NCBI GenBank assembly: GCA_963716425.1
Contig: OY970310.1
Coordinates: 1,670,807 to 1,734,806, forward strand
DNA length: 64,000 nucleotides
Origin: Candidatus Babeliales bacterium
GTDB taxonomy: Bacteria; Babelota; Babeliae; Babelales; JBFXEV01
Direction of reading: 5' to 3'
The translations under genes were made by a program, and so were the position numbers. This document shows, piece after piece, positions 718-41,164 of this stretch. The notes under the pieces are model-generated. The model was not told where the DNA came from. It made no database searches and was given only the letters and a program-made list of their open reading frames with translations. The number at the start of each line of letters is the position of its first letter. Position 1 is the stretch's first letter.

Positions 718-1929
718 ATGAAACTATGCTTACTATTTTTGCTTATCGCGTGTAATATCTCAATGCTTGCGTATGAATATCTGTATCCCGTTGGACATAT
801 TGAGCAAGATGGTTTTAAGTTATTATTGTTATATCAAAAATCAGTGCACCACGTGGAGCTCTGGCAGTGGGACCCTGTCAGTCAGGAGGCTGGTAAAGCA
901 TTGCTTTCAAGCTATACGCCAGCGGGAATTGCTTTGTTGCCTCATGGCAATGGATTTAGTTTTATTGATAACGATACCATTCGAGTTGCCTACACTGATA
1001 AACGGTCTCCTATGCTTATTCCTCTCTATGAACCACTCTATGATTTTACCACAGTGCACTGGTTTGATGCGCAGCATTGTATATTGAGCGCTAAAGAAAA
1101 AGAACGATTTGGTATATATATTGTTGATGTAGAAGGGCAGTGTACTCAAATACTTCATGATAAGGAATGCAATTATCGTTACCCCTATTTGATTCAAAAT
1201 AATATATTTTATATTCAAGTGCATGGTGATCATCACAGTATAATGCAAGGGACCATTGATCTTGCAGCAATCACCATTCCCAAAAAGCTTACTGCGCAAG
1301 ATATATTCAATGGAATGAGTGAACGTGCGTATTACCCAGTACAAAACGTACAATCCATTATTGATTGCAAAGAAGGCCACGTGGCGTTTTTAACTATGCA
1401 AGATCCACATATTGGTTTTTATCTTGAGCATCCCGCACGTATTGACCGGCATGATACCACCATATCATTTGTATATCATCAGATAGCAAAGCAGGGCGAT
1501 GCGTGGCACGATAAAGTTCTGTTTACCTTCTCAATACCTATGGCCTATTTAATGTCACCGCAAGAACGGCTGTATGAGTCGATATTACCATTTTTGCCAA
1601 AACCAATTGGTAATGTAGTGTATTACTTCCATTGTCCCGATGGCACAACTTCTACACAATTGTGGAAATATGATCTCAAAGAATATACTGCAACACAACT
1701 CACGTACGCTTACCAATCAGTTATAGGATTGCATGCTGCTCATCCTAACCTGCAAGCAGCAATTCTATGCCCAGACCAAGAACTGGCCGAGGGGCATAAT
1801 GCTATCATGCTTTGGCATGGTGGTGTGCTACAAGACAATCTAAATAATCAAATCAACTTACCAACAGCCTGGGTAAGCGCCCAGGGGCAATTTTTGGTAA
1901 ATATACCATCAATGCGCGTTTCTCAGTAG
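718..1929 (+). CDS. hypothetical exported protein (403 aa)
   Basis: Long ORF with SD-like AAAGGGA upstream and a hydrophobic N-terminus MKLCLLFLLIACNISMLA. No family recognised by eye. ORFs 767..1087(+) and 907..1380(-) are treated as shadows. Confidence 0.55.
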   Translation: MKLCLLFLLIACNISMLAYEYLYPVGHIEQDGFKLLLLYQKSVHHVELWQWDPVSQEAGKALLSSYTPAGIALLPHGNGFSFIDNDTIRVAYTDKRSPMLIPLYEPLYDFTTVHWFDAQHCILSAKEKERFGIYIVDVEGQCTQILHDKECNYRYPYLIQNNIFYIQVHGDHHSIMQGTIDLAAITIPKKLTAQDIFNGMSERAYYPVQNVQSIIDCKEGHVAFLTMQDPHIGFYLEHPARIDRHDTTISFVYHQIAKQGDAWHDKVLFTFSIPMAYLMSPQERLYESILPFLPKPIGNVVYYFHCPDGTTSTQLWKYDLKEYTATQLTYAYQSVIGLHAAHPNLQAAILCPDQELAEGHNAIMLWHGGVLQDNLNNQINLPTAWVSAQGQFLVNIPSMRVSQ

Positions 1930-1943
1930 TACATTGATGCAGG

Positions 1944-2609
1944 ATGTTTAAAATGATTAAAAAAATAGTAGTACTTTTTACCCTGTTTACTAGTTCACCT
2001 CTAGTATCCATGGAACCAGTAGAGGATATTACTCTTGAATCAGCACAACTTGCATCCTTATCAAGTAAAACACGCAATCAAAAAGTCGCGCGGGCTATTG
2101 TATCTGTTTTGGGACGCCTATCGTTAAGTTCTCTAACAGATCATAATAATGTTGATGAACTATTGTCTGCTTGCGTAGAACCACAGAGCACTAAAATTAT
2201 TTTAGGCTCATCTACCAAGACAGTATTCGTTTGTGGAACTGCAGGTATCACTAGAGAAATGGTGGATTTAATGCCAAAGAATGTTCATGATCACATAGCT
2301 GCTCACCATTTTACCCGTATTTGTAGCGGGTCGTTACCTGAAAATCTTATTGCAGATGCTCGTGCTGCCAAACTCTCTATGTGGGATGTAGATGTTCTTA
2401 AGAAACTTGAGAATCTATCTACAACCCAAGCTCAAAATATATGGAAATTATTGCAAAATACTGCCAATAACGAACAAACTGATAAAGTAAAAGTACAATT
2501 ACAGCTTTATCGGTTACTTAACCCTCGATTCACGTGGGGAAAAGTCGCTCTGGTAAGTACTCTTGCGGCCCTTGGTTATCTAACCTACATATTGATGTCA
2601 CTGGAGTAG
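1944..2609 (+). CDS. hypothetical membrane-anchored protein (221 aa)
   Basis: N-terminal leader MIKKIVVLFTLFTSSPLVSM-EP, a variant of the window-wide x-M-D/E leader. C-terminal hydrophobic helix VALVSTLAALGYLTYILM. Confidence 0.5.
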   Translation: MFKMIKKIVVLFTLFTSSPLVSMEPVEDITLESAQLASLSSKTRNQKVARAIVSVLGRLSLSSLTDHNNVDELLSACVEPQSTKIILGSSTKTVFVCGTAGITREMVDLMPKNVHDHIAAHHFTRICSGSLPENLIADARAAKLSMWDVDVLKKLENLSTTQAQNIWKLLQNTANNEQTDKVKVQLQLYRLLNPRFTWGKVALVSTLAALGYLTYILMSLE

Positions 2610-2634
2610 TTTATCAAGAAGAATAATTTAAAGT

Positions 2635-3933
2635 ATGGAGAAATGCATGAAGCCTAACTTTCCAATCGATCAAGTCTATACCTATCTTCCTAAGACAAAA
2701 AATATTCCATTAAAAGGCGATGCCCATTGTGATGTGGTGATTATTGGTGGTGGCATGGCGGGCATTTCTGCAGCACAAAAGTTTAAAGAAAAAGGGTGCT
2801 CTGTCATTCTAATTGAAAAAAGTTTTTGTGGGGCAGGAGCGAGTGGCAAAAGTTCTGGATTTATTACCCCAGATTCAGAAATACCACTTCATGCACTTAT
2901 TGATCGCCTTGGCATAGAAAAAGCAAAAGGCATGTGGGATTTTGTGCAAATGGGTGTGGATGCAATAAAAAACAACATAGAAACACACGGCATTGCCTGT
3001 GATTATCGCACAGAAGATACCTTGGTACTTGCAGGCTCTCTTAAAGATTTTAATACCATGACAATAGCGGAACATCAAGCGCGCATTGCATGCGGCTACC
3101 AAAGTACATTGTATCAAAAAGATGAATTAAGCAAGGTTGTTGGCGCGCAAGGCTTTTATGGCGCAATACGCTATGGCAACACATTTGGCATTAATGGATA
3201 TCAGTATCTGCAAGGTGCCAAAGCTATACTCCAAGATTCTGGCGTTTCTGTGTTTGAAGAAACACCTGCGATAGCACTAGAACCACATAAAGCGATAACC
3301 CCTTATGGGACTATTACAGCAAAATATGTAGTGCTTTGCACCGACAGATTTATCCCGGAGCTACACAAGTTAACATATGAAATTTTTCCCATTCAAACGT
3401 TCTTAATGATATCAGCCTCTCTTTCTGACGTTGATGTTAAAGCAATATTCACCCAGTCTCCTATGATGGCATGGGACACTGCACTCATTTATACCTATTT
3501 TAGAATCACAGCTGATAATAGATTAATGGTTGGTGGGTCTACGCTTTTGGGAACATATGCAGGTTATGCGCAGCATGATAATGTACATGGTTTTTCACGA
3601 TTGCAGAATTATGTTAACGCACGGTTTCCATCCGTGAAGCCTCAATTTGAATATATGTGGCCAGGATTAATTGGCGTGAGCAAAGATATTTTACCTCTTG
3701 CAGGAAGAGACGCTCAAGACCCATCGTTGTATTATATTGGAGCCGCTGCAGGGTTGCCTTGGGCAGCAGCATTAGGCTGCTATGCTGCCGACTCACTTAT
3801 TGATGGGCGCACTGATTATGATGTTAGCTTTAACCCCTATCGCTCATTTAAGTTTGGGCGAGGTGTACAAACAATTTTGGGAAATAGATTAACGTTTGCT
3901 TTGTCTCATGTTACCACGTTGAGCAGTTTTTAA
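2635..3933 (+). CDS. FAD-dependent oxidoreductase (DAO family-like)
   Basis: N-terminal Rossmann dinucleotide motif DVVIIGGGMAGISAAQKFKEKGCSVILIEK (GxGxxG plus acidic end of beta-2). The 432-aa length and layout are typical of DAO-type flavoenzymes. Confidence 0.8.
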   Translation: MEKCMKPNFPIDQVYTYLPKTKNIPLKGDAHCDVVIIGGGMAGISAAQKFKEKGCSVILIEKSFCGAGASGKSSGFITPDSEIPLHALIDRLGIEKAKGMWDFVQMGVDAIKNNIETHGIACDYRTEDTLVLAGSLKDFNTMTIAEHQARIACGYQSTLYQKDELSKVVGAQGFYGAIRYGNTFGINGYQYLQGAKAILQDSGVSVFEETPAIALEPHKAITPYGTITAKYVVLCTDRFIPELHKLTYEIFPIQTFLMISASLSDVDVKAIFTQSPMMAWDTALIYTYFRITADNRLMVGGSTLLGTYAGYAQHDNVHGFSRLQNYVNARFPSVKPQFEYMWPGLIGVSKDILPLAGRDAQDPSLYYIGAAAGLPWAAALGCYAADSLIDGRTDYDVSFNPYRSFKFGRGVQTILGNRLTFALSHVTTLSSF

Positions 3934-3960
3934 GTAGAGATAATTTTGTTACAGTTCTAA

Positions 3961-4299
3961 AGAGATAGTATTGGGAAACTTAGTTTATGCTATGGATATA
4001 GAATAAAAACAAACGGAACAAGCGCTGCTGAACATAATGCAATGTATCGGCAATTTGCCATAATGCAAGCCATGATTGAAGCCGGAGCAAACTTGGAAAA
4101 AGAAGATGAACACGGTGAAAGATCTTTGCATTGGGCAGTATACCGGGGAATGCCTGATCTTATTAGAGCGCTCATTGAAGCAGGTGCCAAAAAGTACCCG
4201 CTCGCGATCATTTGTATCTACGAGCAGGTTTTTTTACTTTCGCTAAATTACCTAGCAGATTCTGTATCTACTTTCCTAAGAGCCACATGCTACCGCTAA
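3961..4299 (+). pseudogene. ankyrin-repeat gene remnant (about two ANK repeats, no credible N-terminus)
   Basis: The frame is open from the stop at 3958-3960 and reads ...NGTSAAEHNAMYRQFAIMQAMIEAGANLEKEDEHGERSLHWAVYRGMPDLIRALIEAGAKK, which is ANK consensus. It has no leader, and the only ATG is internal (4042). Its 3' end overlaps the convergent gene 4268..4828. Confidence 0.4.
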
Positions 4300-4828: not shown

Positions 4829-5129
4829 GAGAACTCCTTTTCTATTAACTCATCCTATTCCCCAGAATAGAATTACTATACTTAAAGATAAAAGTCTACG
4901 CCTTTTCTTCTATTCTAATTGTAACAAGAAGGGGGGGCAGAAGTCAATATTTTTGACTATTGCGCATAAAAATTTATTCCCACCGGATTACAACTGCATC
5001 CAATGGGTCTTGCGGGAGTGTTGAGCTTTTTTCCCATAATCATTGCTTTTAATATTATATTTGTATTATTATTATAACAAGGGGTATGAATATCTCAAAT
5101 TAATATTATTTATAAAAAAAGGAGTTCTC

Positions 5130-5459
5130 ATGAATAAAGGTATATTGCTGATTTCGCTGTTTGCTTTAGGTATAAACATGGCTGTAAATGGAGCTGATGC
5201 TGGTGAGCAAACGAATTTTAATGCAGTTCAAGAAATAGCTAAATCTGCATTAATTCAGGTAAAAAGCTTAGAATCAGTACCGCGTGGTGCAGGAAAAGCA
5301 ATAGGAATTTCTGTAACCGCAAACGTATTGAATGCAGCTTCCGAACAACTACTTAAAGCTGGTTTAGAAATTAAAGATCAACAGCTCCGAAAGCAAATAA
5401 TTGCTTTAATTAATGAGGTTGATGCAGCTAAGTTGAGTCTTATTGGTATGAATGATTAA
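5130..5459 (+). CDS. small exported helical protein (109 aa)
   Basis: I prefer the ATG at 5130, preceded by AAAGGAG, over the track start at 5043. Signal-like MNKGILLISLFALGINMAVNGADA. Confidence 0.5.
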   Translation: MNKGILLISLFALGINMAVNGADAGEQTNFNAVQEIAKSALIQVKSLESVPRGAGKAIGISVTANVLNAASEQLLKAGLEIKDQQLRKQIIALINEVDAAKLSLIGMND

Positions 5460-5574
5460 TTGATATTAGCTTTTTTTAATTATCATCCATTAAACAATAG
5501 TATTCAATCTCTACTAAATAGTTATTGCAGAGTCAACAGTTACTTTGTTCAGATGTTTAAAAATCATCAAATAC

Positions 5575-5604
5575 AAAAAGCCGGCCACAAAGAGCCGGCT
5601 TTCA
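5575..5604. terminator. bidirectional rho-independent terminator hairpin
   Basis: Perfect 9-bp stem AAAGCCGGC/GCCGGCTTT (5577-5585 / 5594-5602) with an 8-nt loop, flanked by an A-run and a T-run. It lies 12 nt past the stop of the minus gene 5614..5973 and downstream of the plus gene 5130..5459. Confidence 0.7.
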
Positions 5605-5613
5605 TTATCAGTA

Positions 5614-5973
5614 TTACTCAGTTTGTTTCCACTTGGCCGTATCATAGTAAAGATGAATAGCTTGAATTTTACCGCTCTTCACTTCCATCCATTCAACCGT
5701 TGGCACAGAGCCAGCAGGTGTGGAAGTGACACACTCAAGCATTGTACACACACCTGTTTCATCAGCAAATTGCTTTTTAAAATCAAAGCGTTTCATAATC
5801 ATCATAAATTGATTGAGCATTGCAATGACATTCTGTTTGCCAACAACAGCTTCATTTGGGCCAGTAATGGTAACATCATCTGCAAGTGGCAGTTTATCGA
5901 TTGCTAGTGATTTGGTTGCAAATGCCTCATTCATAATCTTGTAGTACTGTGCTACAACGTCTTTTGGATTCAT
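5614..5973 (-). CDS. NTF2-like / SnoaL-like small protein (119 aa)
   Basis: I chose the start at ATG 5973 (MNPKDVVAQYYKIMNE...) to avoid overlap with csaA. The size and the pattern ...EWMEVKSGKIQAIHLYYDT resemble SnoaL/NTF2-fold proteins. Weak call. Confidence 0.45.
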   Translation of the reverse strand: MNPKDVVAQYYKIMNEAFATKSLAIDKLPLADDVTITGPNEAVVGKQNVIAMLNQFMMIMKRFDFKKQFADETGVCTMLECVTSTPAGSVPTVEWMEVKSGKIQAIHLYYDTAKWKQTE

Positions 5974-6043
5974 AGTAGATCCTATGCGGGTTTGATAGTT
6001 CTTTTTGTCCTTGATATCGATTTTAAAACATTTTTTGACCAAG

Positions 6044-32378: not shown

Positions 32379-35300
32379 TCACGCATGACCTTCAAGCTTT
32401 GCCATTACGCCTTGGCAACGTGCACATAATTTGAGTGCATGATCAGTAACTTCATACTGCCAGCAGCGAGGGCACTTATCGCCGCTCGCTCTGTCAACAC
32501 GCACTTCTAAACCAGAAAGATCAAAGAAAAGATCTTCATCCTCTTCTTCATCTTCATCAAATTCATCTTCTTCATCAAAATCATCTTCTTCGTCGTCATA
32601 ATCGTCATCTTCGTAAAGATCATCTACTTCTGAAACAACGAAAAATTCTTTATAAAAGTCTTGTGATGTTTGACCAGTTTTTTCTAGATCATTCAAAAAT
32701 TCTTGTAGCATAGCCATTTCTTCTTGAGGTAAATTAAATTTAATCGTTAATGCAACTTCCAAAGGATGCTTAATTACTCCTAACTCCCTTTGCTTTTCAA
32801 TTGCTTTCATTACTAGAGACCGTATCTTAAACAACAGCGCCCACTGTTTTTGATGCCGTGCCCAAAATGCAATCTTATCAATCTTCTCTGCAGTTGGTGC
32901 AGAAACAATCCCCTTTTGCATCTTACTCATAAATGTAGTATAGCCATGACCCACCAATAAAGCTATCAGTGGCTCTATATGAGCAAAACCTTGCACATGG
33001 ATTGACTCGGTTTTATTCTTCTGGTACTCATCAGATACTTCTTCTGCAACAAATGACAATATAGGTGCCATCAGTTTAGTTAACATATCTAAAATATACC
33101 AACATGCAGTTTGCGCTGATCGTCGCTCATGAGATTGCGGATAGTCAGCATATAATCGGTCTTTGATTACATCCAAGTAAAACGCGCTCAACTCCACAGA
33201 ACAATATTCGGCTAACTCATGAAATATAGCAGTATAATTATAGCTATCATATGAGTTCTTTATCCTCTCATTAAACTGAGAGAGCACTAGCAACGCATGC
33301 TGGTCAATAAGCTGCAGATCTTGAACATTCACTGCGTCTTTAGCTATGTCAAAGTCATATAAGTTGCCGAGCAAGAATCTGCATGAGTTCCTTACTTTAC
33401 GATATACTTGAGCTACGTTTTTCATTAACTTTTCAGACACTACCGCGTCATCACCGTAATCCAAACTTGCAACCCACAATCTGAGTCCATCGGTTCCCAA
33501 CTGCTTGATAATATCTTGGGGTTCAACACCATTGCCACGAGACTTGGACATTTTATGCCCTTTCTCGTCCACCGTAAACCCATGGGCCATAAACGCCTTG
33601 GTGCACGGTGACCCTTCTACTACCAAGCTGGTAAGAAGTGAACTCTGGAACCACGCCCTGTATTGGTCAATTCCCTCCAAATAGAGATCAGCAGGATACC
33701 TTAATTTTGGATCTTTCTCAAGTACTGCATAATGGCTCACACCCGATTCAAACCAAACATCAATGATATCCGTCTCTTTTTGAAGATTGGTACCTTTACA
33801 TTCTGGGCATTGGAGCGATTTTGTCAATTGTTCTACAGAAACTTTTTGCCAATAGGTAATGCCTTCTTGGTGCACCTTATCTGCAACAGCTTCAATCATC
33901 CCTTTATCAATAAAGGCATAATCACAGCTTTTGCAAAGCAAGGCAGGAATTGGCACACCCCATGTCCGTTGCCTTGATAAACACCACTCCAAGCGATTTT
34001 CAATAGTCGCCCGCAATGACTGCTTGCCGGTGGCAGGCATAAAGGCTATCTGATTTTCAACTGCTTCAAGTGCTCGTTGTTTTAAATTTTTATGCTCTAA
34101 GCTGCAGAACCATTGCTTGGTCGCTCTGAACATGAGTCCATTATGGCAACGCCAACAATGGGGGTAAGAGTGACGTATTGATTCCTTTACAAAGAGTGTG
34201 CCTATTTCAGACATTCTTTTGAGCACCCACCACTGACCATCATCAATGGACATGCCCTGCAGCTCTGGGGGACGAATACCTTGGGTATACTTGCCATCAG
34301 GGCTTAAGGGTGAATATATTTCTAATTTATTTTTTATTGCTACATCATAATCTTGCGGTCCACACCCTGGCGCACAGTGAACAATGGCAGTTCCCTCATC
34401 TGTGCCCACCATAGTATCCAAAATCACGGGAACTTGCTGACCCTCAATAAAAGGATGATCAACCAAAAGGCCTGCAAGCTCTTCTGCCAGAAACTGGGCA
34501 ACCACGTTCTTTTTGATCTCTGCTTTTGCACATACGGCATCGGCAAGAGCTGAACCGACTATATAATAATGGCCTTCATGCTCAAGCACTGCGTAGGGGG
34601 TTTTTGGCTTCATAAGCACAGCACGGTTCAATGGAAGCGTCCAAGGGGTAGTAGTCCATACCAAGAGACTTACGGGCTTACCTTCAAGCGTTGGCAATGC
34701 TTTTTTGATTGTCGCATCAGGCAACGGGAACCGTACATAGACTGATGGGTCCTTACGCTCCTGATATTCAATTTCAGCCGCAGCAAGAACCGTCTGACAA
34801 GAATAACACCAAGGCACCGTGCGCAGTTTGCGCTCAATGTATCCTTGGGCTACAAATGAGGCAAATGCCCGCAATATATCAGCCTCATATGGATAGTCCA
34901 TGGTCATGCGGGGATGATCCCAATCAAAAATGACCCCAAGCTGTTTAAATTCGTCACTTTGAATCTTCACCCATTTATGGGCATAAACTCTGCATGCCTC
35001 TATAAAAGAGGTGCCGGTAAGGCCTGGATGCTCTTGCGTTACTTTTAATTCAATAGGCAAGCCATGGCAGTCCCATACGGGGATGGTGGGCACGTGATAC
35101 CCTGCCATACGGCGTGATTTACAGGTAATATCTTTTAAAATTTTATTGTAGGCATGACCTAAATGAATATGCCCATTAGAATAGGGAGGACCATCATTCA
35201 AAATATACTTTTCTTTCCCAGCATTGCATTCCATGGCTTGTTGGTATAAACCTTCATCTTGCCATCTTTGTAGCATTTTCTGGTCATCTTGTGCATGGGA

Positions 35301-35387
35301 CGGATAAATAGGAAAGTTAGTCTTTGGTAAATTAAGACTATCTTTAAAACTATTTTCTTGGCTTTTTGAACTCTGTATCTCTGACAT
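32379..35387 (-). CDS. ileS: isoleucyl-tRNA synthetase
   Basis: Class I motifs PPYSNGHIHLGHAYNK (HIGH) and HKMSKSRGN (KMSKS). WCYSCQT editing/CP1 context and a C-terminal zinc knuckle CPRCW...CARC. 1002 aa. Confidence 0.95.
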   Translation of the reverse strand: MSEIQSSKSQENSFKDSLNLPKTNFPIYPSHAQDDQKMLQRWQDEGLYQQAMECNAGKEKYILNDGPPYSNGHIHLGHAYNKILKDITCKSRRMAGYHVPTIPVWDCHGLPIELKVTQEHPGLTGTSFIEACRVYAHKWVKIQSDEFKQLGVIFDWDHPRMTMDYPYEADILRAFASFVAQGYIERKLRTVPWCYSCQTVLAAAEIEYQERKDPSVYVRFPLPDATIKKALPTLEGKPVSLLVWTTTPWTLPLNRAVLMKPKTPYAVLEHEGHYYIVGSALADAVCAKAEIKKNVVAQFLAEELAGLLVDHPFIEGQQVPVILDTMVGTDEGTAIVHCAPGCGPQDYDVAIKNKLEIYSPLSPDGKYTQGIRPPELQGMSIDDGQWWVLKRMSEIGTLFVKESIRHSYPHCWRCHNGLMFRATKQWFCSLEHKNLKQRALEAVENQIAFMPATGKQSLRATIENRLEWCLSRQRTWGVPIPALLCKSCDYAFIDKGMIEAVADKVHQEGITYWQKVSVEQLTKSLQCPECKGTNLQKETDIIDVWFESGVSHYAVLEKDPKLRYPADLYLEGIDQYRAWFQSSLLTSLVVEGSPCTKAFMAHGFTVDEKGHKMSKSRGNGVEPQDIIKQLGTDGLRLWVASLDYGDDAVVSEKLMKNVAQVYRKVRNSCRFLLGNLYDFDIAKDAVNVQDLQLIDQHALLVLSQFNERIKNSYDSYNYTAIFHELAEYCSVELSAFYLDVIKDRLYADYPQSHERRSAQTACWYILDMLTKLMAPILSFVAEEVSDEYQKNKTESIHVQGFAHIEPLIALLVGHGYTTFMSKMQKGIVSAPTAEKIDKIAFWARHQKQWALLFKIRSLVMKAIEKQRELGVIKHPLEVALTIKFNLPQEEMAMLQEFLNDLEKTGQTSQDFYKEFFVVSEVDDLYEDDDYDDEEDDFDEEDEFDEDEEEDEDLFFDLSGLEVRVDRASGDKCPRCWQYEVTDHALKLCARCQGVMAKLEGHA

Positions 35388-35512: not shown

Positions 35513-35953
35513 TTACAGGTCTTTACTATGCTGTGCGCCAGCACGCGCAAGAATATTGTACATATGAGTACCTTTTCCTGCGTAATCAAGGGGTGTCAGC
35601 CCAAGCGCATCCGTTTCATTAAGGCGAGAACGAGAAGAGATGAGAATCTGAAGAAAATCTTCATTTAATTGGTCCGGATCATCATTGGGTGAACCATTTA
35701 CTGGCCGTCTCTGCACATTCAACTCACCACCATAAATTACAAATCTATGTATACGGTTTTGAGCTGGGACAATAAGACCCCTATTCCTTATGCATTCGCC
35801 TGGCCAGCGGGTTTTGAGGCATTCCTGTACCCGAAAATCTAGTGTCATCATGTAGTAATCATTAATTTGACTAGCTTTAAGCGACCTTATAATCCCACAA
35901 GATATAAGCATTAAAGCACATGCAACAATGGCATAAAATTGTTTAATATTCAC
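35513..35953 (-). CDS. small lipoprotein-like protein with one C-terminal ANK repeat (146 aa)
   Basis: GTG start preceded by AAGGG. The N-terminus ...ALMLISCG is lipobox-like (LISC). C-terminal DALGLTPLDYAGKGTHMYNILARAGAQ. Confidence 0.6.
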   Translation of the reverse strand: MNIKQFYAIVACALMLISCGIIRSLKASQINDYYMMTLDFRVQECLKTRWPGECIRNRGLIVPAQNRIHRFVIYGGELNVQRRPVNGSPNDDPDQLNEDFLQILISSRSRLNETDALGLTPLDYAGKGTHMYNILARAGAQHSKDL

Positions 35954-36155
35954 TGTAGACCCTTTTTTGGCTTAAATAAAGCCTTTTTTCTACTTTTAGC
36001 ATACTAAAATTGGGAGCCAAAAAGCAATAATAGGGTAGATAAACACTAAGCGCGTAGAATATCAAGCCACCCAGCATTAGAGATCTTCATCATTTGGGGT
36101 GTAAAATCACAGTGATATACATATCAATACAACATACATTCACTATGGTTTTACT

Positions 36156-36458
36156 TTACTTTCTTCCGGGTCTAACATTTTTTGGGATCATATATCTGAG
36201 AAACATCTTTTCATTAGTTTCATTTTTAAACACCGTTAACTGTTTTGAATCAAATTTATATCGATCAAATAGACCCATAAGATCTATCAAATCGTGCTTA
36301 GGAATATTATTTGAGTCAACATATACATGCAACTTTCGACCAAAGCCTTTATAATCTTTAACGGATTTAATTTTGTCAAGCCAACCAAACATTAAGTCTT
36401 CATCATTTTGAGAGTAAAAGCGTAGCGGCGTACATATTAAAACAACTTCTTTTTTCAT
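36156..36458 (-). CDS. small leaderless protein, paralog 2 (candidate spare immunity protein, 100 aa)
   Basis: SD AAGGAA. About 30% identical to 36696..37007, sharing V.LIC...RFY...DED..F.W...I.S...G.G...H..V...LF.RY..D..QL.VF.NE.N. Its last 8 codons resemble the Hint-protein tail. Confidence 0.6.
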   Translation of the reverse strand: MKKEVVLICTPLRFYSQNDEDLMFGWLDKIKSVKDYKGFGRKLHVYVDSNNIPKHDLIDLMGLFDRYKFDSKQLTVFKNETNEKMFLRYMIPKNVRPGRK

Positions 36459-36467
36459 AATATTTCC

Positions 36468-36524
36468 TTATCTTTTTCCGGTTCTAATATGCCCATTAGG
36501 ATATACATTATCATACGCGGATGG
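36468..36524 (-). pseudogene. orphan remnant of the Hint-protein 3' tail
   Basis: My translation gives (stop)PSAYDNVYPNGHIRTGKR(stop), compared with the tail of 37013..37702, ...SEDDYVNVYPNGHIRQGKRK(stop). About 50 nt of clear nucleotide similarity (ATATG[T/C]CCATTAGGATA[A/T]ACATT). It sits just upstream of paralog 2. Confidence 0.7.
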
Positions 36525-36695
36525 CTATTTTCAAGTCTCGAAGGAATAAAATATTATAATCAACTTTTACATTTGATGCTGTAAAATTTGTGGGATAATC
36601 GACGCAAAATGAATTAGTAAATGAAGCAAAGCCGCCCGGCGATTGAACTTACAGTTTTTTCCCATAGTTTTGCTTTACAAAAATTTAAAGTCAAG

Positions 36696-37007
36696 TTATT
36701 GAATCCTTTTTGCCAACCACTCTTTATTCTCTTCATTCAAAAACACTCTCAACTGATGTGTGTCAATAAGATATCGACGAAACAAGGCTAATATATTTTC
36801 AACATCATCGGGCCCCATTTCATCCTCCGTTACAAAAAGATGCATCTCATCACCAACTCCGCTAAATTGCGTAATTGAAGGAATACGTTTTATCCATTCA
36901 AAAAAAACATCTTCATCCAATAGTGCATAAAACCTAACTCTTTTACATATTAATTTAACATTTTTCTTGATCTTAGGATCATGCATATCATCAATGTGCT
37001 TTTTCAT
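36696..37007 (-). CDS. small leaderless protein, paralog 1 (candidate cognate immunity protein, 103 aa)
   Basis: The ATG lies 5 nt after the stop of the Hint-domain gene, with an SD inside that gene's 3' end. No signal peptide. Paralogous to 36156..36458. Confidence 0.6.
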   Translation of the reverse strand: MKKHIDDMHDPKIKKNVKLICKRVRFYALLDEDVFFEWIKRIPSITQFSGVGDEMHLFVTEDEMGPDDVENILALFRRYLIDTHQLRVFLNEENKEWLAKRIQ

Positions 37008-37012
37008 TTTTT

Positions 37013-37702
37013 CTATTTTCGCTTTCCTTGCCTTATATGTCCATTAGGATAAACATTGACATAATCATCTTCTGATATTTGCACATCCCAATGCGGGCCA
37101 CCGTGACCATTGGGTCCTGTTGGTATCCATATGTTCCCATCCTTATCTGGCCCTACTCCAACACCAACTACTTTTAAAACCTCTGCTACTCCAAGAGTAA
37201 TTGGCATTACTATCACAAGATTATGCACAACAATACCATCGCCAGTTACACAAAACGTATGATACTCATCAATCACCAAATCATATACTGTTGCTTCTTG
37301 AACAATTTCTCGAACATGAGAGACCACAATCTCATGCTCATAACAACTTTGCAGCAGCATACCAGGCTTAAGATCTTGTGCAGTACACCAGTTCTTTTGA
37401 AGTGGCGCATAGAATGGTTGTTTGGAGTCAGTGATAATATCAGCGTTGCTGGCATAGCCCTGCGCGTTAATATGAATAAGTTGAGTTACCTTATGAGAAA
37501 CAATATCAGTTATTGTACGTAACAAAAAATCGTCTACTTGCTCATCAAAAGTAAACACTTCATCACCAACCGCAAGCTCTTCTATAGGAATAAAGCCGTC
37601 AATTGTCTTAACTAGTGTGCCAGCAACAAACCCTGCTTGAGCATGTAGAACGATAAGAGAAAATAAATGTAAGCAGAGAATTGAAGTTTTATAAAACGAC
37701 AT
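37013..37702 (-). CDS. exported Hint (Hedgehog/intein) domain protein with a 68-aa C-terminal tail (candidate polymorphic toxin, 229 aa)
   Basis: ATG 37702 is preceded by AAGGGG; the track start at 37726 is TTG. Signal MSFYKTSILCLHLFSLIVLHAQA. Hint block A GFVAGTLVKTIDGFIPIEELAVGDEVFTF and terminal block YHTFCVTGDGIVVHN. Tail ...GPDKDGNIWIPTGPNGHGGPHWDVQISEDDYVNVYPNGHIRQGKRK. Confidence 0.75.
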   Translation of the reverse strand: MSFYKTSILCLHLFSLIVLHAQAGFVAGTLVKTIDGFIPIEELAVGDEVFTFDEQVDDFLLRTITDIVSHKVTQLIHINAQGYASNADIITDSKQPFYAPLQKNWCTAQDLKPGMLLQSCYEHEIVVSHVREIVQEATVYDLVIDEYHTFCVTGDGIVVHNLVIVMPITLGVAEVLKVVGVGVGPDKDGNIWIPTGPNGHGGPHWDVQISEDDYVNVYPNGHIRQGKRK

Positions 37703-37937
37703 AGAGTAACCCCTTTTAAGTTCCAATCACACTACTGCACAAAACACACTCAATTAAATCAGGGGTTAATTGTACTCATTTTTATAAAACTAAACAAGAG
37801 AACACACTTCTTGATACGTGGATGAATGCACAAAATGCCTATGCATGTACCAACAAAAAAGGTAAACTGAGATCGCTCACAAACAATTAATAGTATGTTC
37901 AATCATAACATAACGAACATTCTGACAGGCTACGTGC

Positions 37938-39535: not shown

Positions 39536-41164
39536 TTATATATTAAATTGATGTGTGATACCGGCGTAGAAGCCTTTAAACATGTGCTCCTGCCCTTGCA
39601 ATTCTTTTGGCAAGAATGCGGCTAATGGGCTGCCTGTCTCACGTATAGGATCAAACCCCACATGGTAAATCTTACCCGCAGTATTCATGGTACAATGATA
39701 AAAACCAGGCTGATGCTGTTTGCCAGGAAACCACGGATTATTCATAGCATCTTCAAACACCATCTGGCCACGTAAATACCAGCGCGTGCCAATATCATCA
39801 GGCTGAGAATCACTTGCTCGAGGTTCTGGCTTGCCATGCTTAATAATGCAATTCATAACTTGTAATGGAATTTGATGATAATAGACAGACCTTTTAAATT
39901 CTTGCAGCGTGCGATACCTTTTATATTCTGTACGTAAAAAATCATTGTTAAACCAATCTTGTACACGTGCATCCACCGTATCAGCGGTCACCGTAATTAC
40001 ATGAACACTAGGTGCATCTTCAAAGGACATCTTACGACGCGTAGAAGTTGTTTCATCAAACTTAAAAGCATTCAAGCTATCGCGCAGTTCTTTGGTAGGA
40101 GAAAGCGGATCAACAGCGGCCTCAGGTTTTGATTTTTTTGTTGGTGATGTTGTTTGAATCGTATCGCTTGAAGATTGACGCTTTGGCACTGCAGCATGAC
40201 CCTCACCAGCTTCATGCCCCTGTTGCAATCGATGCTTTTTTTTCTTTAATAGTTTCTTTTTCTCAGCTTTTTCTTTTAGAACCGCTGCTTGCCGTGCAAA
40301 TTTTGCCTGCTGTGAAGATGAGGCAATAGTATCGGCAAGAAAACTATCTTTCTTGCTTGACTGCTTACCTTCAAATAATGCTACAATATCATCATAATTC
40401 TGGAGATGAGCAAGATGCAAAGCAGATCTGCCAAAACGATCTTTTGTATAAGGACTTGCACCACGAGCCATTAATTTTTTTATAATTTCACGAGATGGAT
40501 TTGGTCGTAAAAGAATAAAATGAAGTGGTGTTTGACCTAAATTTTCTTGGCGGGTACAATCAAGATTCTCAAATTGATATAATGCATCAAATGACTTTTC
40601 ATCGCCCCTATACAAAACTGTAAAAAGCGGCGTTTGCCCCCATGCATCTGCAGCGTTAATCTGAGCACCACGTTTAATAAGGTCAGCAATAACATCTGTA
40701 TTGCCAATGGTAACTGCTGCATCAAGTGGCGTACCGACTGAGCACGCTAAATTAACATCAGCCCCTAAATCAAGTATAGTCTTGATCAGAGATGGTTTTC
40801 TTGCACCAATTGCATAGACTAGCGGAGTCAGCTCCACTGTTTCCGCATTAAAAAACTTCTTTTTTTCAAGCGAATTAAGTTCTTCACTATGCAGAGCATC
40901 AATATTAACACCACGCTCACGGACTAAATTTTCTATACACTTGATAGCAACCGATACTGCACGCTCTGATGCATCTTTATTACAGGCATTAAACACTACA
41001 GCAAACAACTGCTTTTCAGCAGCTTTTTTTTCTGCTGTTTCAAATTCACGAGATTGAGGCAGTGCCTGGGCATGCCCAAAATCTAAATTTTGTTGCATAC
41101 CATATATTGGGCTAACAAGAGCCAAAACGAGCCACAATGCAGAAACATTAAAAATATACTTCAT
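39536..41164 (-). CDS. ankyrin-repeat protein with Lys-rich linker and unrecognised C-terminal domain (542 aa)
   Basis: Leader MKYIFNVSALWLVLALVSPIYGM-QQ. ANK units DAWGQTPLFTVLYRGDEKSFDAL, NLGQTPLHFILL and DRFGRSALHLAHLQNYDDIVALF. Linker KEKAEKKKLLKKKKHRLQ. The roughly 170-aa C-terminal domain is of unknown family. Confidence 0.85.
   Translation of the reverse strand: MKYIFNVSALWLVLALVSPIYGMQQNLDFGHAQALPQSREFETAEKKAAEKQLFAVVFNACNKDASERAVSVAIKCIENLVRERGVNIDALHSEELNSLEKKKFFNAETVELTPLVYAIGARKPSLIKTILDLGADVNLACSVGTPLDAAVTIGNTDVIADLIKRGAQINAADAWGQTPLFTVLYRGDEKSFDALYQFENLDCTRQENLGQTPLHFILLRPNPSREIIKKLMARGASPYTKDRFGRSALHLAHLQNYDDIVALFEGKQSSKKDSFLADTIASSSQQAKFARQAAVLKEKAEKKKLLKKKKHRLQQGHEAGEGHAAVPKRQSSSDTIQTTSPTKKSKPEAAVDPLSPTKELRDSLNAFKFDETTSTRRKMSFEDAPSVHVITVTADTVDARVQDWFNNDFLRTEYKRYRTLQEFKRSVYYHQIPLQVMNCIIKHGKPEPRASDSQPDDIGTRWYLRGQMVFEDAMNNPWFPGKQHQPGFYHCTMNTAGKIYHVGFDPIRETGSPLAAFLPKELQGQEHMFKGFYAGITHQFNI

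Follow-up and report, generated by a model that had tools for sequence, protein, structure and literature searches.

The window analyzed here is a 64-kb stretch of the genome of a Candidatus Babeliales (Dependentiae) bacterium (64,000 nucleotides of contig OY970310.1, positions 1,670,807 to 1,734,806), and the region of interest within it comprises a short toxin gene followed on the minus strand by two small open reading frames. With a probability of ~0.8, which applies to the explanation as a whole including the system, its history and a crippled toxin, this region is a polymorphic toxin/immunity locus located between murD and an ankyrin-like gene plus ileS. The toxin gene specifies a predicted Sec signal peptide, a Hint (Pretoxin HINT) domain and only the C-terminal half of the toxin domain Ntox37, and is the product of an internal deletion in a longer ancestor. 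The small open reading frames encode putative immunity proteins, and remnants of earlier toxin ends are interspersed with them. An initial annotation of the letters had proposed a toxin/immunity cassette at this site. Its coordinates and features, including the open reading frames, a 68-aa tail after the Hint domain and spacings of 5 nt and 237 nt, all hold, and the proposal itself is supported by Pfam matches of the toxin to PT-HINT and Ntox37 and by an immunity gene homolog after Ntox37 in 10 of 10 related loci. The features, in the order in which they are read on the minus strand, are as follows.

37702..37013, minus strand: toxin gene, 229 aa; signal peptide, PT-HINT, short hydrophobic linker and Ntox37 C-terminal half
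37634..37702, minus strand: predicted Sec signal peptide, residues 1-23, MSFYKTSILCLHLFSLIVLHAQA followed by GF; abuts the first Hint strand
37220..37633, minus strand: Pretoxin HINT domain, residues 24-161; Gly1, block-B Gln and C-terminal His-Asn
37151..37219, minus strand: hydrophobic Gly/Val-rich linker, residues 162-184, LVIVMPITLGVAEVLKVVGVGVG; from hydropathy and alignment
37016..37150, minus strand: Ntox37 C-terminal half, residues 185-229, PDKDGNIWIPTGPNGHGGPHWDVQ…YPNGHIRQGKRK
37007..36696, minus strand: immunity gene 1 (ORF1), 103 aa; starts 5 nt past the toxin TAG
36521..36468, minus strand: relic 1, Ntox37 3' end, …SAYDNVYPNGHIRTGKR plus stop; directly upstream of ORF2
36458..36156, minus strand: immunity gene 2 (ORF2), 100 aa; 237 nt beyond ORF1
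36178..36060, minus strand: relic 2 of a toxin 3' end with a dead immunity gene fragment; from tblastn, blastn, hidden Markov model (HMM) and junction alignment

The toxin open reading frame starts with ATG, directly 5' of which stands AAAAGGGG. The identical 229-aa protein is encoded in the NCBI contig (1.87 Mb) and in independent ENA and Logan assemblies, and the short gene is therefore real and not an assembly artefact. The N-terminus displays the hallmarks of the Sec signal that had been noted initially: a basic N-region (MSFYK), a hydrophobic core with Kyte-Doolittle hydropathy >1.5 across residues 4-31, and an A-x-A site (HAQA/GF) at which processing would yield a mature protein starting GFVAGTLV. 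The same signal-peptide/Hint layout recurs in the homologs P0002, L007, L014 and P0004-P0010. The adjoining Hint domain matched PT-HINT (PF07591) in Pfam with an E of 1.5e-17 and 64.6 bits (threshold 27.7) across residues 30-161, which correspond to profile positions 1-136 of 137. Hint_2 also scored above threshold, from residue 24, and the TIGR01443 intein C-terminal region was matched as well; the Intein_splicing profile remained below threshold (23.3 vs 35.8). The domain ends …GIVVHN161, its position 1 is Gly (AQA/GFVAG) and the +1 residue is Leu (HN/LVIV). The block-B His is replaced by Gln (…DSKQPFY…), and the F-block His and the terminal His-Asn are retained. In intein chemistry, Asn cyclization can cut the C-terminal peptide bond without the N-terminal steps. 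As the window domain has no Cys or Ser at position 1, a Gln in block B and no +1 nucleophile, splicing would be impossible and the domain appears fit for C-terminal cleavage only. Thus, both the non-Cys first residue with an intact His-Asn and the assignment to cleavage instead of splicing, as originally put forward, agree with the Pfam and residue-level data.

The HMM search of the tail that the initial annotation had recommended identified a known polymorphic-toxin domain, Ntox37 (PF15535), with 33.3 bits when the whole protein was scored and 37.7 bits for the tail by itself (threshold 27.8), spanning residues 185-221 and profile positions 35-78 of 78. In the family HMM built here the tail covers positions 45-94 of 95. 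The GHGGPHWDV…N…P core, including HWD, is kept and the N-terminal half of the domain (AQAPGxPxExDGFxPxKxWxGxKV…) is missing. Homologs of 290-465 aa possess the complete Ntox37 (…AQAPGKPTEKDGFxPKKNWDGKKVKHRRGYGWPDKKGNIWIPTGPNGHGGPHWDVQ…NIxPGGxxRG), and the full-length toxins of orthologous Candidatus Babeliales loci measure 424-465 aa. Alignment of the window toxin with those of L007 (465 aa) and L014 (424 aa) opens a single large gap that starts midway through the hydrophobic linker and closes at 'PDKDGN'. Among 11 related loci, Ntox37 lacks HMM positions 5-44 in the window only. Because the orthologous loci hold full-length toxins, the window gene carries an in-frame internal deletion of ~200-240 aa in which linker sequence and the N-terminal half of Ntox37 were lost. 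What remains of the linker is the truncated remnant of an ~50-aa glycine-zipper-like segment seen in the homologs, with the deletion junction at its 3' end. The toxin that had been regarded as unusually minimal is accordingly no compact design, and instead descends by in-frame deletion from a 424-465-aa ancestor. The homolog P0278 is annotated as Gly-zipper_Omp plus Ntox37, and the glycine-rich segment may aid membrane insertion or translocation. In the nematode-trapping fungi Arthrobotrys and Dactylellina, proteins of ~140 aa (P0225, P0243, P0245) likewise pair a glycine-rich hydrophobic N-terminus with the whole of Ntox37, which suggests that the unit was transferred to eukaryotes.

The two small open reading frames downstream are paralogs, as initially proposed, with 39% identity over 84 aa (E 3e-23) in place of the ~30% that had been estimated. 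Neither contains a hydrophobic segment (maximum 15-residue hydropathy 0.65), in keeping with their earlier description as leaderless. The ORF1 protein is 77% identical to P0012, which trails the full-length toxin of L007 after the same 5-nt gap, and the gene has a dN/dS of 0.19 relative to this counterpart. ORF2 shares 74% amino acid identity with the 88-aa immunity gene of the syntenic locus L014. The latter comparison gave a dS of 2.27, alongside values of 2.06 for the flanking IleRS and 2.27 for the ankyrin-like gene, and a dN/dS of 0.085. Both genes are under purifying selection. A family profile was constructed from ORF1, ORF2 and six homologs and retrieved 918 cluster representatives at E <= 1e-3, and 545 at <= 1e-10, among 1.84 billion representatives; many of these are tandem fusions of two to four domains. 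The family signature is C…DED..F.W…G…RY…QL…N (invariant residues C20, D30-E31-D32, F35, W37, G49, R77-Y78, Q84-L85 and N93) and includes no invariant His. The AlphaFold model (pLDDT 80.7) predicts a beta-alpha-beta-beta-alpha unit followed by helices.

A member of this family lies directly downstream of Ntox37 in all 10 related loci (L004, L005, L007, L012, L014, L015, L016, L018, L023 and L024), in one to three copies, and the small open reading frames are therefore regarded as cognate immunity genes. Toxin and immunity genes in these loci are separated by 5-nt gaps or overlap by 4 nt. The family also forms arrays devoid of toxin genes (L013, L017), accompanies CdiI_N genes in a mixed array after an Ntox21 toxin (L011), and is fused to CdiI_N in P0082 (E 1.3e-11). 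The linkage, the arrays, the company of CdiI_N and the strong purifying selection on the orphan ORF2 together argue for a role in immunity. The comparison of the small open reading frames with known families, also suggested at the outset, was completed and returned no match in Pfam, NCBIfam or PADLOC for either protein or for the family; precomputed Pfam annotations with newer families likewise contained none. Matches to MinC, DUF3867 and Epsilon_antitox were far below threshold and inconsistent among members. Imm32 is the immunity family listed for Ntox37 (Zhang, de Souza, Anantharaman, Iyer and Aravind, 2012, Biol Direct 7:18; PMC3482391). Imm32 (PF15566) did not match eight members at E <= 10 or 10 further representatives at E <= 0.1, and its expected conserved His has no invariant equivalent in the window family. 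DUF8220 (PF26665) gave an hhalign probability of 0.2%, and precomputed annotations that include PF26665 assign no domain to the window family. Separately, P0045 and P0110 contain an Ntox37-like segment and an immunity domain in a single reading frame, and L013 (4687..5178) joins an immunity copy to an Ntox37 C-terminal relic (…QHWHV…YINVYPEN…). Such proteins may be orphan modules that are read through, or genuine fusions.

The history of the locus can be read by comparison with two related arrangements. L014 (JBFXEV010000001.1), a metagenome-assembled Candidatus Babeliales genome, shows synteny with the window in the order murD, a 424-aa signal-peptide/HINT/full-Ntox37 toxin (ending …YDNVYPSGHIRPGRK), the 88-aa immunity gene, the ankyrin-like gene and ileS, and its IleRS is 81% identical to that of the window. 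L007-L010 are metagenomic contigs that have the murD side in common with the window, followed by the 465-aa full-length toxin, the 5-nt gap and P0012. The divergence between the window and L007 is mosaic. The signal peptide and HINT region shows 68-70% nucleotide identity, with a dS of 1.79 and a dN/dS of 0.21. The Ntox37 C-terminal half belongs to a block of 83% nucleotide identity (dS 0.47) with a dN/dS of 0.15 that mostly reflects the lineage before the deletion. Immunity gene 1 (dS 0.64, dN/dS 0.19) is part of the same block, which continues to 29 nt past its stop. The block starts at 37152, exactly the deletion junction. The tail and immunity gene 1 were co-inherited as one unit (83% vs 68-70% for HINT) and other tails are followed by other genes, such as CdiI_N after Ntox21. 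Immunity gene 1 is on these alignments cognate to the current toxin tail.

Immunity gene 2 is preceded by its own remnant of a toxin. Relic 1 (…SAYDNVYPNGHIRTGKR and stop) comprises 16 codons that match the current toxin end (…DDYVNVYPNGHIRQGKRK and stop) at 87% over 15 aa in tblastn and at HMM positions 79-94 (i-E 0.0019), and it forms a contiguous 76% nucleotide match with the toxin end and immunity gene of L014. The relic holds a ribosome-binding-site-like AAGGA for immunity gene 2. No further Ntox37 sequence was detected by tblastn, blastn or HMM between immunity gene 1 and relic 1 (36667..36522). Relic 2 supplies the last ~7 codons of ORF2 (VRPGRK plus stop) and is followed by the dead 5' fragment of a third immunity gene (~36133..36077) whose ATG is altered to ATA and which contains in-frame stops and a frameshift. 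This fragment matches immunity gene 2 at 72% over 18 aa in tblastn (E 6e-4), and the relic 2 region aligns with positions 3960..4073 of L014 in blastn (75%, E 3e-12; HMM i-E 4.4e-4). A four-way junction alignment confirmed that the unit of toxin 3' end, stop, short spacer and immunity start occurs three times in the window. An AAGGA-type ribosome-binding sequence is situated 8-14 nt ahead of each immunity start and is kept in the relics; a plausible explanation is that just these stretches of toxin ends survive because they carry that sequence. On this evidence, immunity gene 2 is not the spare copy that had been envisaged. Instead, it is an older, vertically inherited orphan immunity gene that was displaced together with its own toxin-end relic, and the locus as a whole is a stack of displaced toxin-end/immunity modules. 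The lineage of L007 experienced something comparable: a fragment of a second immunity gene (2098..2214, HMM positions 6-44) lies downstream of P0012, and a second family copy therefore once existed there too and has since decayed.

The simplest history is as follows. An ancestral locus would have contained one toxin and an immunity gene of the ORF2 type, an arrangement that persists in L014. A more recent module consisting of an Ntox37 tail and immunity gene 1 would then have recombined into the locus and pushed out the old tail, leaving the last 16 codons of the latter and its immunity gene, an orphan unit that underwent tandem duplication and partial decay. In addition, ~200-240 codons would have been lost in frame from the present toxin gene. 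That loss may date to the illegitimate recombination itself or to a subsequent deletion, the 3' edge of which falls at the start of the newer block. In its present state the locus may serve chiefly as an immunity set against the Ntox37 variants of competitors.

A complete Ntox37 was also modeled. AlphaFold predicted P0171 (34-sequence alignment) at a pLDDT of 79.8 as an all-beta domain devoid of helix, with all five strands in the C-terminal half and an extended N-terminal half that packs against them at pLDDT 81-93. Ntox37 had been described as an all-beta predicted toxin with a conserved 'E, [KR], Hx[DH]' signature (Zhang et al., 2012), the Glu of which probably maps to the N-terminal APGxPxE segment. 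The near-invariant P-G-x-P and the mostly conserved Glu of the N-terminal half are absent from the window toxin, and the retained half has no conserved Glu. Deprived of linker sequence and of the first half of its toxin domain, the protein is most likely crippled rather than active.

Several points weigh against the overall interpretation, some of them against the loss of activity and others against the system itself. The open frame and all invariant residues of the Ntox37 C-terminal half are kept, all five predicted beta strands are within the retained half, and the dN/dS of the tail versus L007 is 0.15. Neither the Ntox37 nor the immunity model resembles any solved structure in sequence and fold searches of the PDB: Ntox37 had no credible sequence-profile match and nothing below an E of 2.7 in Foldseek, and the immunity family had no credible profile match to PDB sequences and a best, non-significant Foldseek hit (E 0.02, TM ~0.45) to ferredoxin-like HMA domains. 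Literature searches for Ntox37/PF15535 returned only the 2012 survey, and no characterization of toxicity, cleavage or neutralization. The signal peptide was called solely by eye and by hydropathy, and the scheme offers no account of how a toxin exported by Sec would get out of a cell with two membranes and into its target.

Since the frame, the invariant residues, the beta strands and the low tail dN/dS are preserved, some residual toxin activity may persist, and the truncated gene could conceivably specify a working mini-toxin in which the Hint-released 45-residue Ntox37 core suffices and for which immunity gene 1 is still needed. This alternative is unlikely, yet has substance: the protein is identical in several independent assemblies, the invariant G, D, W, G, G, H-W-D, N and P are all present along with the five strands, the dN/dS values versus L007 are low for both the tail (0.15) and immunity gene 1 (0.19), and short called proteins that start mid-domain occur elsewhere (P0229, P0219, P0270). 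However, the latter are most simply orphan fragments, and pairwise dN/dS values sample mainly the shared, functional lineage and not the time after the deletion. Moreover, all 10 other related loci and the stand-alone homologs possess the N-terminal half with its P-G-x-P and mostly conserved Glu. This half is modeled with confidence (pLDDT 81-93) and probably contributes the Glu of the published signature (Zhang et al., 2012), for which the retained half has no conserved counterpart. Most of the glycine-rich segment, a presumed delivery aid, is gone too. The loss of toxin activity by deletion consequently is the preferred reading.

The working of the full system is proposed from the orthologs and not from the deleted toxin of the window. 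The Sec signal peptide would export the toxin protein, and the Hint domain that directly follows would perform only Asn cyclization at its C-terminal His-Asn because it is without an N-terminal nucleophile. Cleavage would free the glycine-rich hydrophobic segment, linker and Ntox37. The ~100-aa cytoplasmic protein encoded just downstream, and translationally coupled, would neutralize the toxin in the producer and its kin, presumably by binding. Cultivated relatives are intracellular parasites of protists, as Babeliales in general are known to be. A tentative extension of the scheme, which we consider possible and somewhat less probable than not, is that obligate intracellular Babeliales conduct strain-versus-strain warfare within protists by means of a scaffold of signal peptide, cleavage-only Hint and glycine zipper that carries the toxin across the target membrane, and that the ~100-aa family (~900 representatives in Babeliales, Nitrospira and Proteobacteria) is the principal, previously undescribed immunity family of Ntox37. 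In a stronger variant of the same idea, the 45-residue Ntox37 core of the window would still be an active mini-toxin.

The intracellular habit also raises the prospect that the toxin family targets the eukaryotic host, in this case a protist, and that the small open reading frames guard the producer before export or act as chaperones. The flanks of the locus include ankyrin-repeat genes, Ntox37 homologs in Arthrobotrys and Dactylellina imply that the domain is used by eukaryotes too, and many toxins of intracellular bacteria have been argued to be host-directed (Zhang et al., 2012). Such toxins typically are without adjacent immunity genes, according to the same survey, whereas the immunity genes here are tightly linked in 10 of 10 loci and amass as orphans and arrays. 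In addition, immunity sequences diversify faster (39% identity for the window pair) than the toxin (64% for the Ntox37 C-terminal halves of L007 vs L014). Tight linkage, fast diversification and the accumulation of orphans and arrays form the signature of conflict between related bacteria, and Ntox37 and the immunity family also occur with RHS in free-living Nitrospira. A host-directed role is accordingly improbable.

That the small open reading frames are not immunity genes at all, and instead are export chaperones, regulators or unrelated conserved neighbors, is very improbable: the want of any match to a known immunity family or solved structure, with non-significant ferredoxin-like/HMA domains as best folds, would suit such roles, but the genes have a strict position right after the toxin with 4-nt overlaps or 5-nt gaps, are duplicated in tandem, form toxin-free arrays (L013, L017) and persist as orphan copies under a dN/dS of 0.085 after loss of the toxin, which a chaperone would not, and they join a mixed array with CdiI_N and are fused to it. 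Least probable of all is the notion, offered as speculation in the initial annotation, that the tail is a tiny HNH-like or beta-beta-alpha-metal nuclease finger, as the H…N…H spacing in GHGGPHWDV…YVNVYPNGH, which includes a His (in HWD) and an Asn (in Y-x-N) conserved family-wide, is outweighed by the identity of the tail with the C-terminal half of Ntox37, by a last His (NGH) that is not conserved and is usually replaced by PGG, by an all-beta model without the defining helix, by the absence of an HNH or Endonuclease VII match in Pfam and of a fold or sequence match in the PDB, and by the placement of the 'all-beta' Ntox37 apart from the HNH/EndoVII toxins (Zhang et al., 2012).

The signal-peptide and HINT scaffold carries Ntox37 in the window, L007, L014, L012, L016 and other loci. 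A survey of related genomes for alternative tails, an idea that was raised at the start, was fruitful: the same Hint domain, in a scaffold with signal peptide and glycine-rich segment, is followed by Ntox21 and then CdiI_N in L011, and in L006 by a tail without family assignment and different small open reading frames downstream. The exchange of tails on one scaffold is true polymorphism. In L006, two signal-peptide and HINT toxin genes are in tandem (1883..3652 and 5001..6039), the second of which is frameshifted after ~259 codons. The intact copy has a C-terminal domain without assignment followed by 182-aa and 95-aa open reading frames without family match, and is a candidate new toxin/immunity pair. 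In L018, an ~1.3-kb insertion interrupts the immunity gene (4025..4150 and 5460..5639) downstream of a complete Ntox37 toxin, and the toxin itself is frameshifted in its last codons; here, too, the system is decaying. Ntox37 also exists on other scaffolds. A 721-aa RHS-Ntox37 protein of Nitrospira (L015) has an immunity family member downstream. In Xanthomonas oryzae (L020/L021) and Sphingomonas leidyi (L022), Ntox37 fragments adjoin RHS genes, with an IS transposase gene in between in the case of X. oryzae. The gene that comes next encodes a DUF8220 (PF26665) protein and no member of the window's immunity family, and from this context DUF8220 would probably serve Ntox37 as a third immunity family, unrelated to the others.

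No further copies of toxin or immunity genes were found elsewhere in the 64-kb window, which also yielded no tRNA genes. The locus is flanked by genes for a 146-aa protein (35513..35953, minus strand) with a weak single ankyrin-like match and for a 542-aa protein (39536..41164, minus strand) with ankyrin repeats, both with N-terminal hydrophobic signal-like segments, a pattern typical of effector-like genes in intracellular bacteria. The IleRS (32379..35387, minus strand) has a long, extremely acidic insertion (…DDLYEDDDYDDEEDDFDEEDEFDEDEEEDEDLFFD…) just ahead of its C-terminal zinc-binding motif, and the insertion is present in the L014 ortholog as well. An element of ~50-85 nt in the murD-toxin intergenic region (37823..37907), preceding both murD and the toxin gene, is present once in the window and three times in L007 (129-164, 2237-2288 and 3436-3499; 77-89% identity). 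All of these copies sit in intergenic or upstream DNA, and the element may represent a promoter or regulatory sequence that was duplicated. A promoter and terminator scan found 10 promoter-like sites vs 10.5 expected, and a 10/12 promoter-like match upstream of immunity gene 2 (36534..36507) is at chance level. The GC skew is negative over nearly all of the window (cumulative -2.3).

The locus provides a well-resolved instance of cassette turnover: displacement, tandem duplication and decay can each be recognized, as can orphan immunity genes that persist under purifying selection. Dependentiae/Babeliales live inside protists, where inter-bacterial conflict is thought to be rare. The system had been called unexpected in an intracellular bacterium; such cases are rare yet documented, with polymorphic toxins and immunity genes described in Odyssella, Simkania and Rickettsia bellii and noted as rare cases among amoeba endosymbionts (Zhang et al., 2012), and such systems recur in Babeliales/Dependentiae genomes. 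Literature searches uncovered no report of polymorphic toxins in Dependentiae/Babeliales, with only the 2012 survey and an unrelated secretome paper retrieved. The analysis further defines by genomic context a large immunity family for Ntox37, and the toxin/immunity pairs of L007 or L014 offer a convenient entry to the function of this domain.

The locus is a known kind of system and entails no new mechanism. Its novelty is modest and consists of an immunity family without Pfam match, a compact signal-peptide/Hint scaffold that is recurrent in Babeliales, and a readable history of displacement and decay. The closest relative is the Pretoxin-HINT class of Sec/'T2SS' toxins, in which a signal peptide and a HINT domain precede a C-terminal toxin domain, the immunity gene is directly downstream, variable tails are mounted on a conserved N-terminal portion, and orphan toxin-end/immunity cassettes that have been displaced are found (Zhang et al., 2012). 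In that survey, HINT is the releasing peptidase just ahead of the toxin domain in polymorphic toxins exported by Sec, T5SS and T7SS. The orphans in the window comprise an intact immunity gene, the dead fragment of another and two relics of toxin 3' ends. In contrast to the class at large, the window protein has no filamentous or repeat region, its Hint domain begins right at the predicted signal-peptidase site, the cleavage site is followed by a glycine-rich hydrophobic segment, and the toxin domain is half deleted. Ntox37 was listed by these authors with RHS and Tox-PLOTU, not with HINT. With respect to Ntox37 itself ('polymorphic toxin type 37', PF15535), the window tail scores above threshold and close orthologs are complete, whereas the window is without the N-terminal APGxPxE…K segment. 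Imm32 and DUF8220 resemble the window family in role, each being a small cytoplasmic protein encoded right after Ntox37, and have no sequence relationship to it. Compared to inteins and their C-terminal-cleavage-only mutants, the Hint fold, the penultimate His, the terminal Asn and the F-block His are shared, whereas the window domain has no Cys/Ser at position 1, no +1 nucleophile (Leu), no N-extein and a Gln in block B. Finally, the orphan modules of CDI (CdiA-CT/CdiI) and Rhs systems are alike in that displaced toxin C-terminal fragments pile up downstream with their own immunity genes and that immunity genes outlast their toxin. The window differs from these systems in having neither a TpsA/FHA nor an RHS shell, and in relics that are very short (16 and ~7 codons) and correspond roughly to the stretch that carries the ribosome-binding site of the immunity gene.

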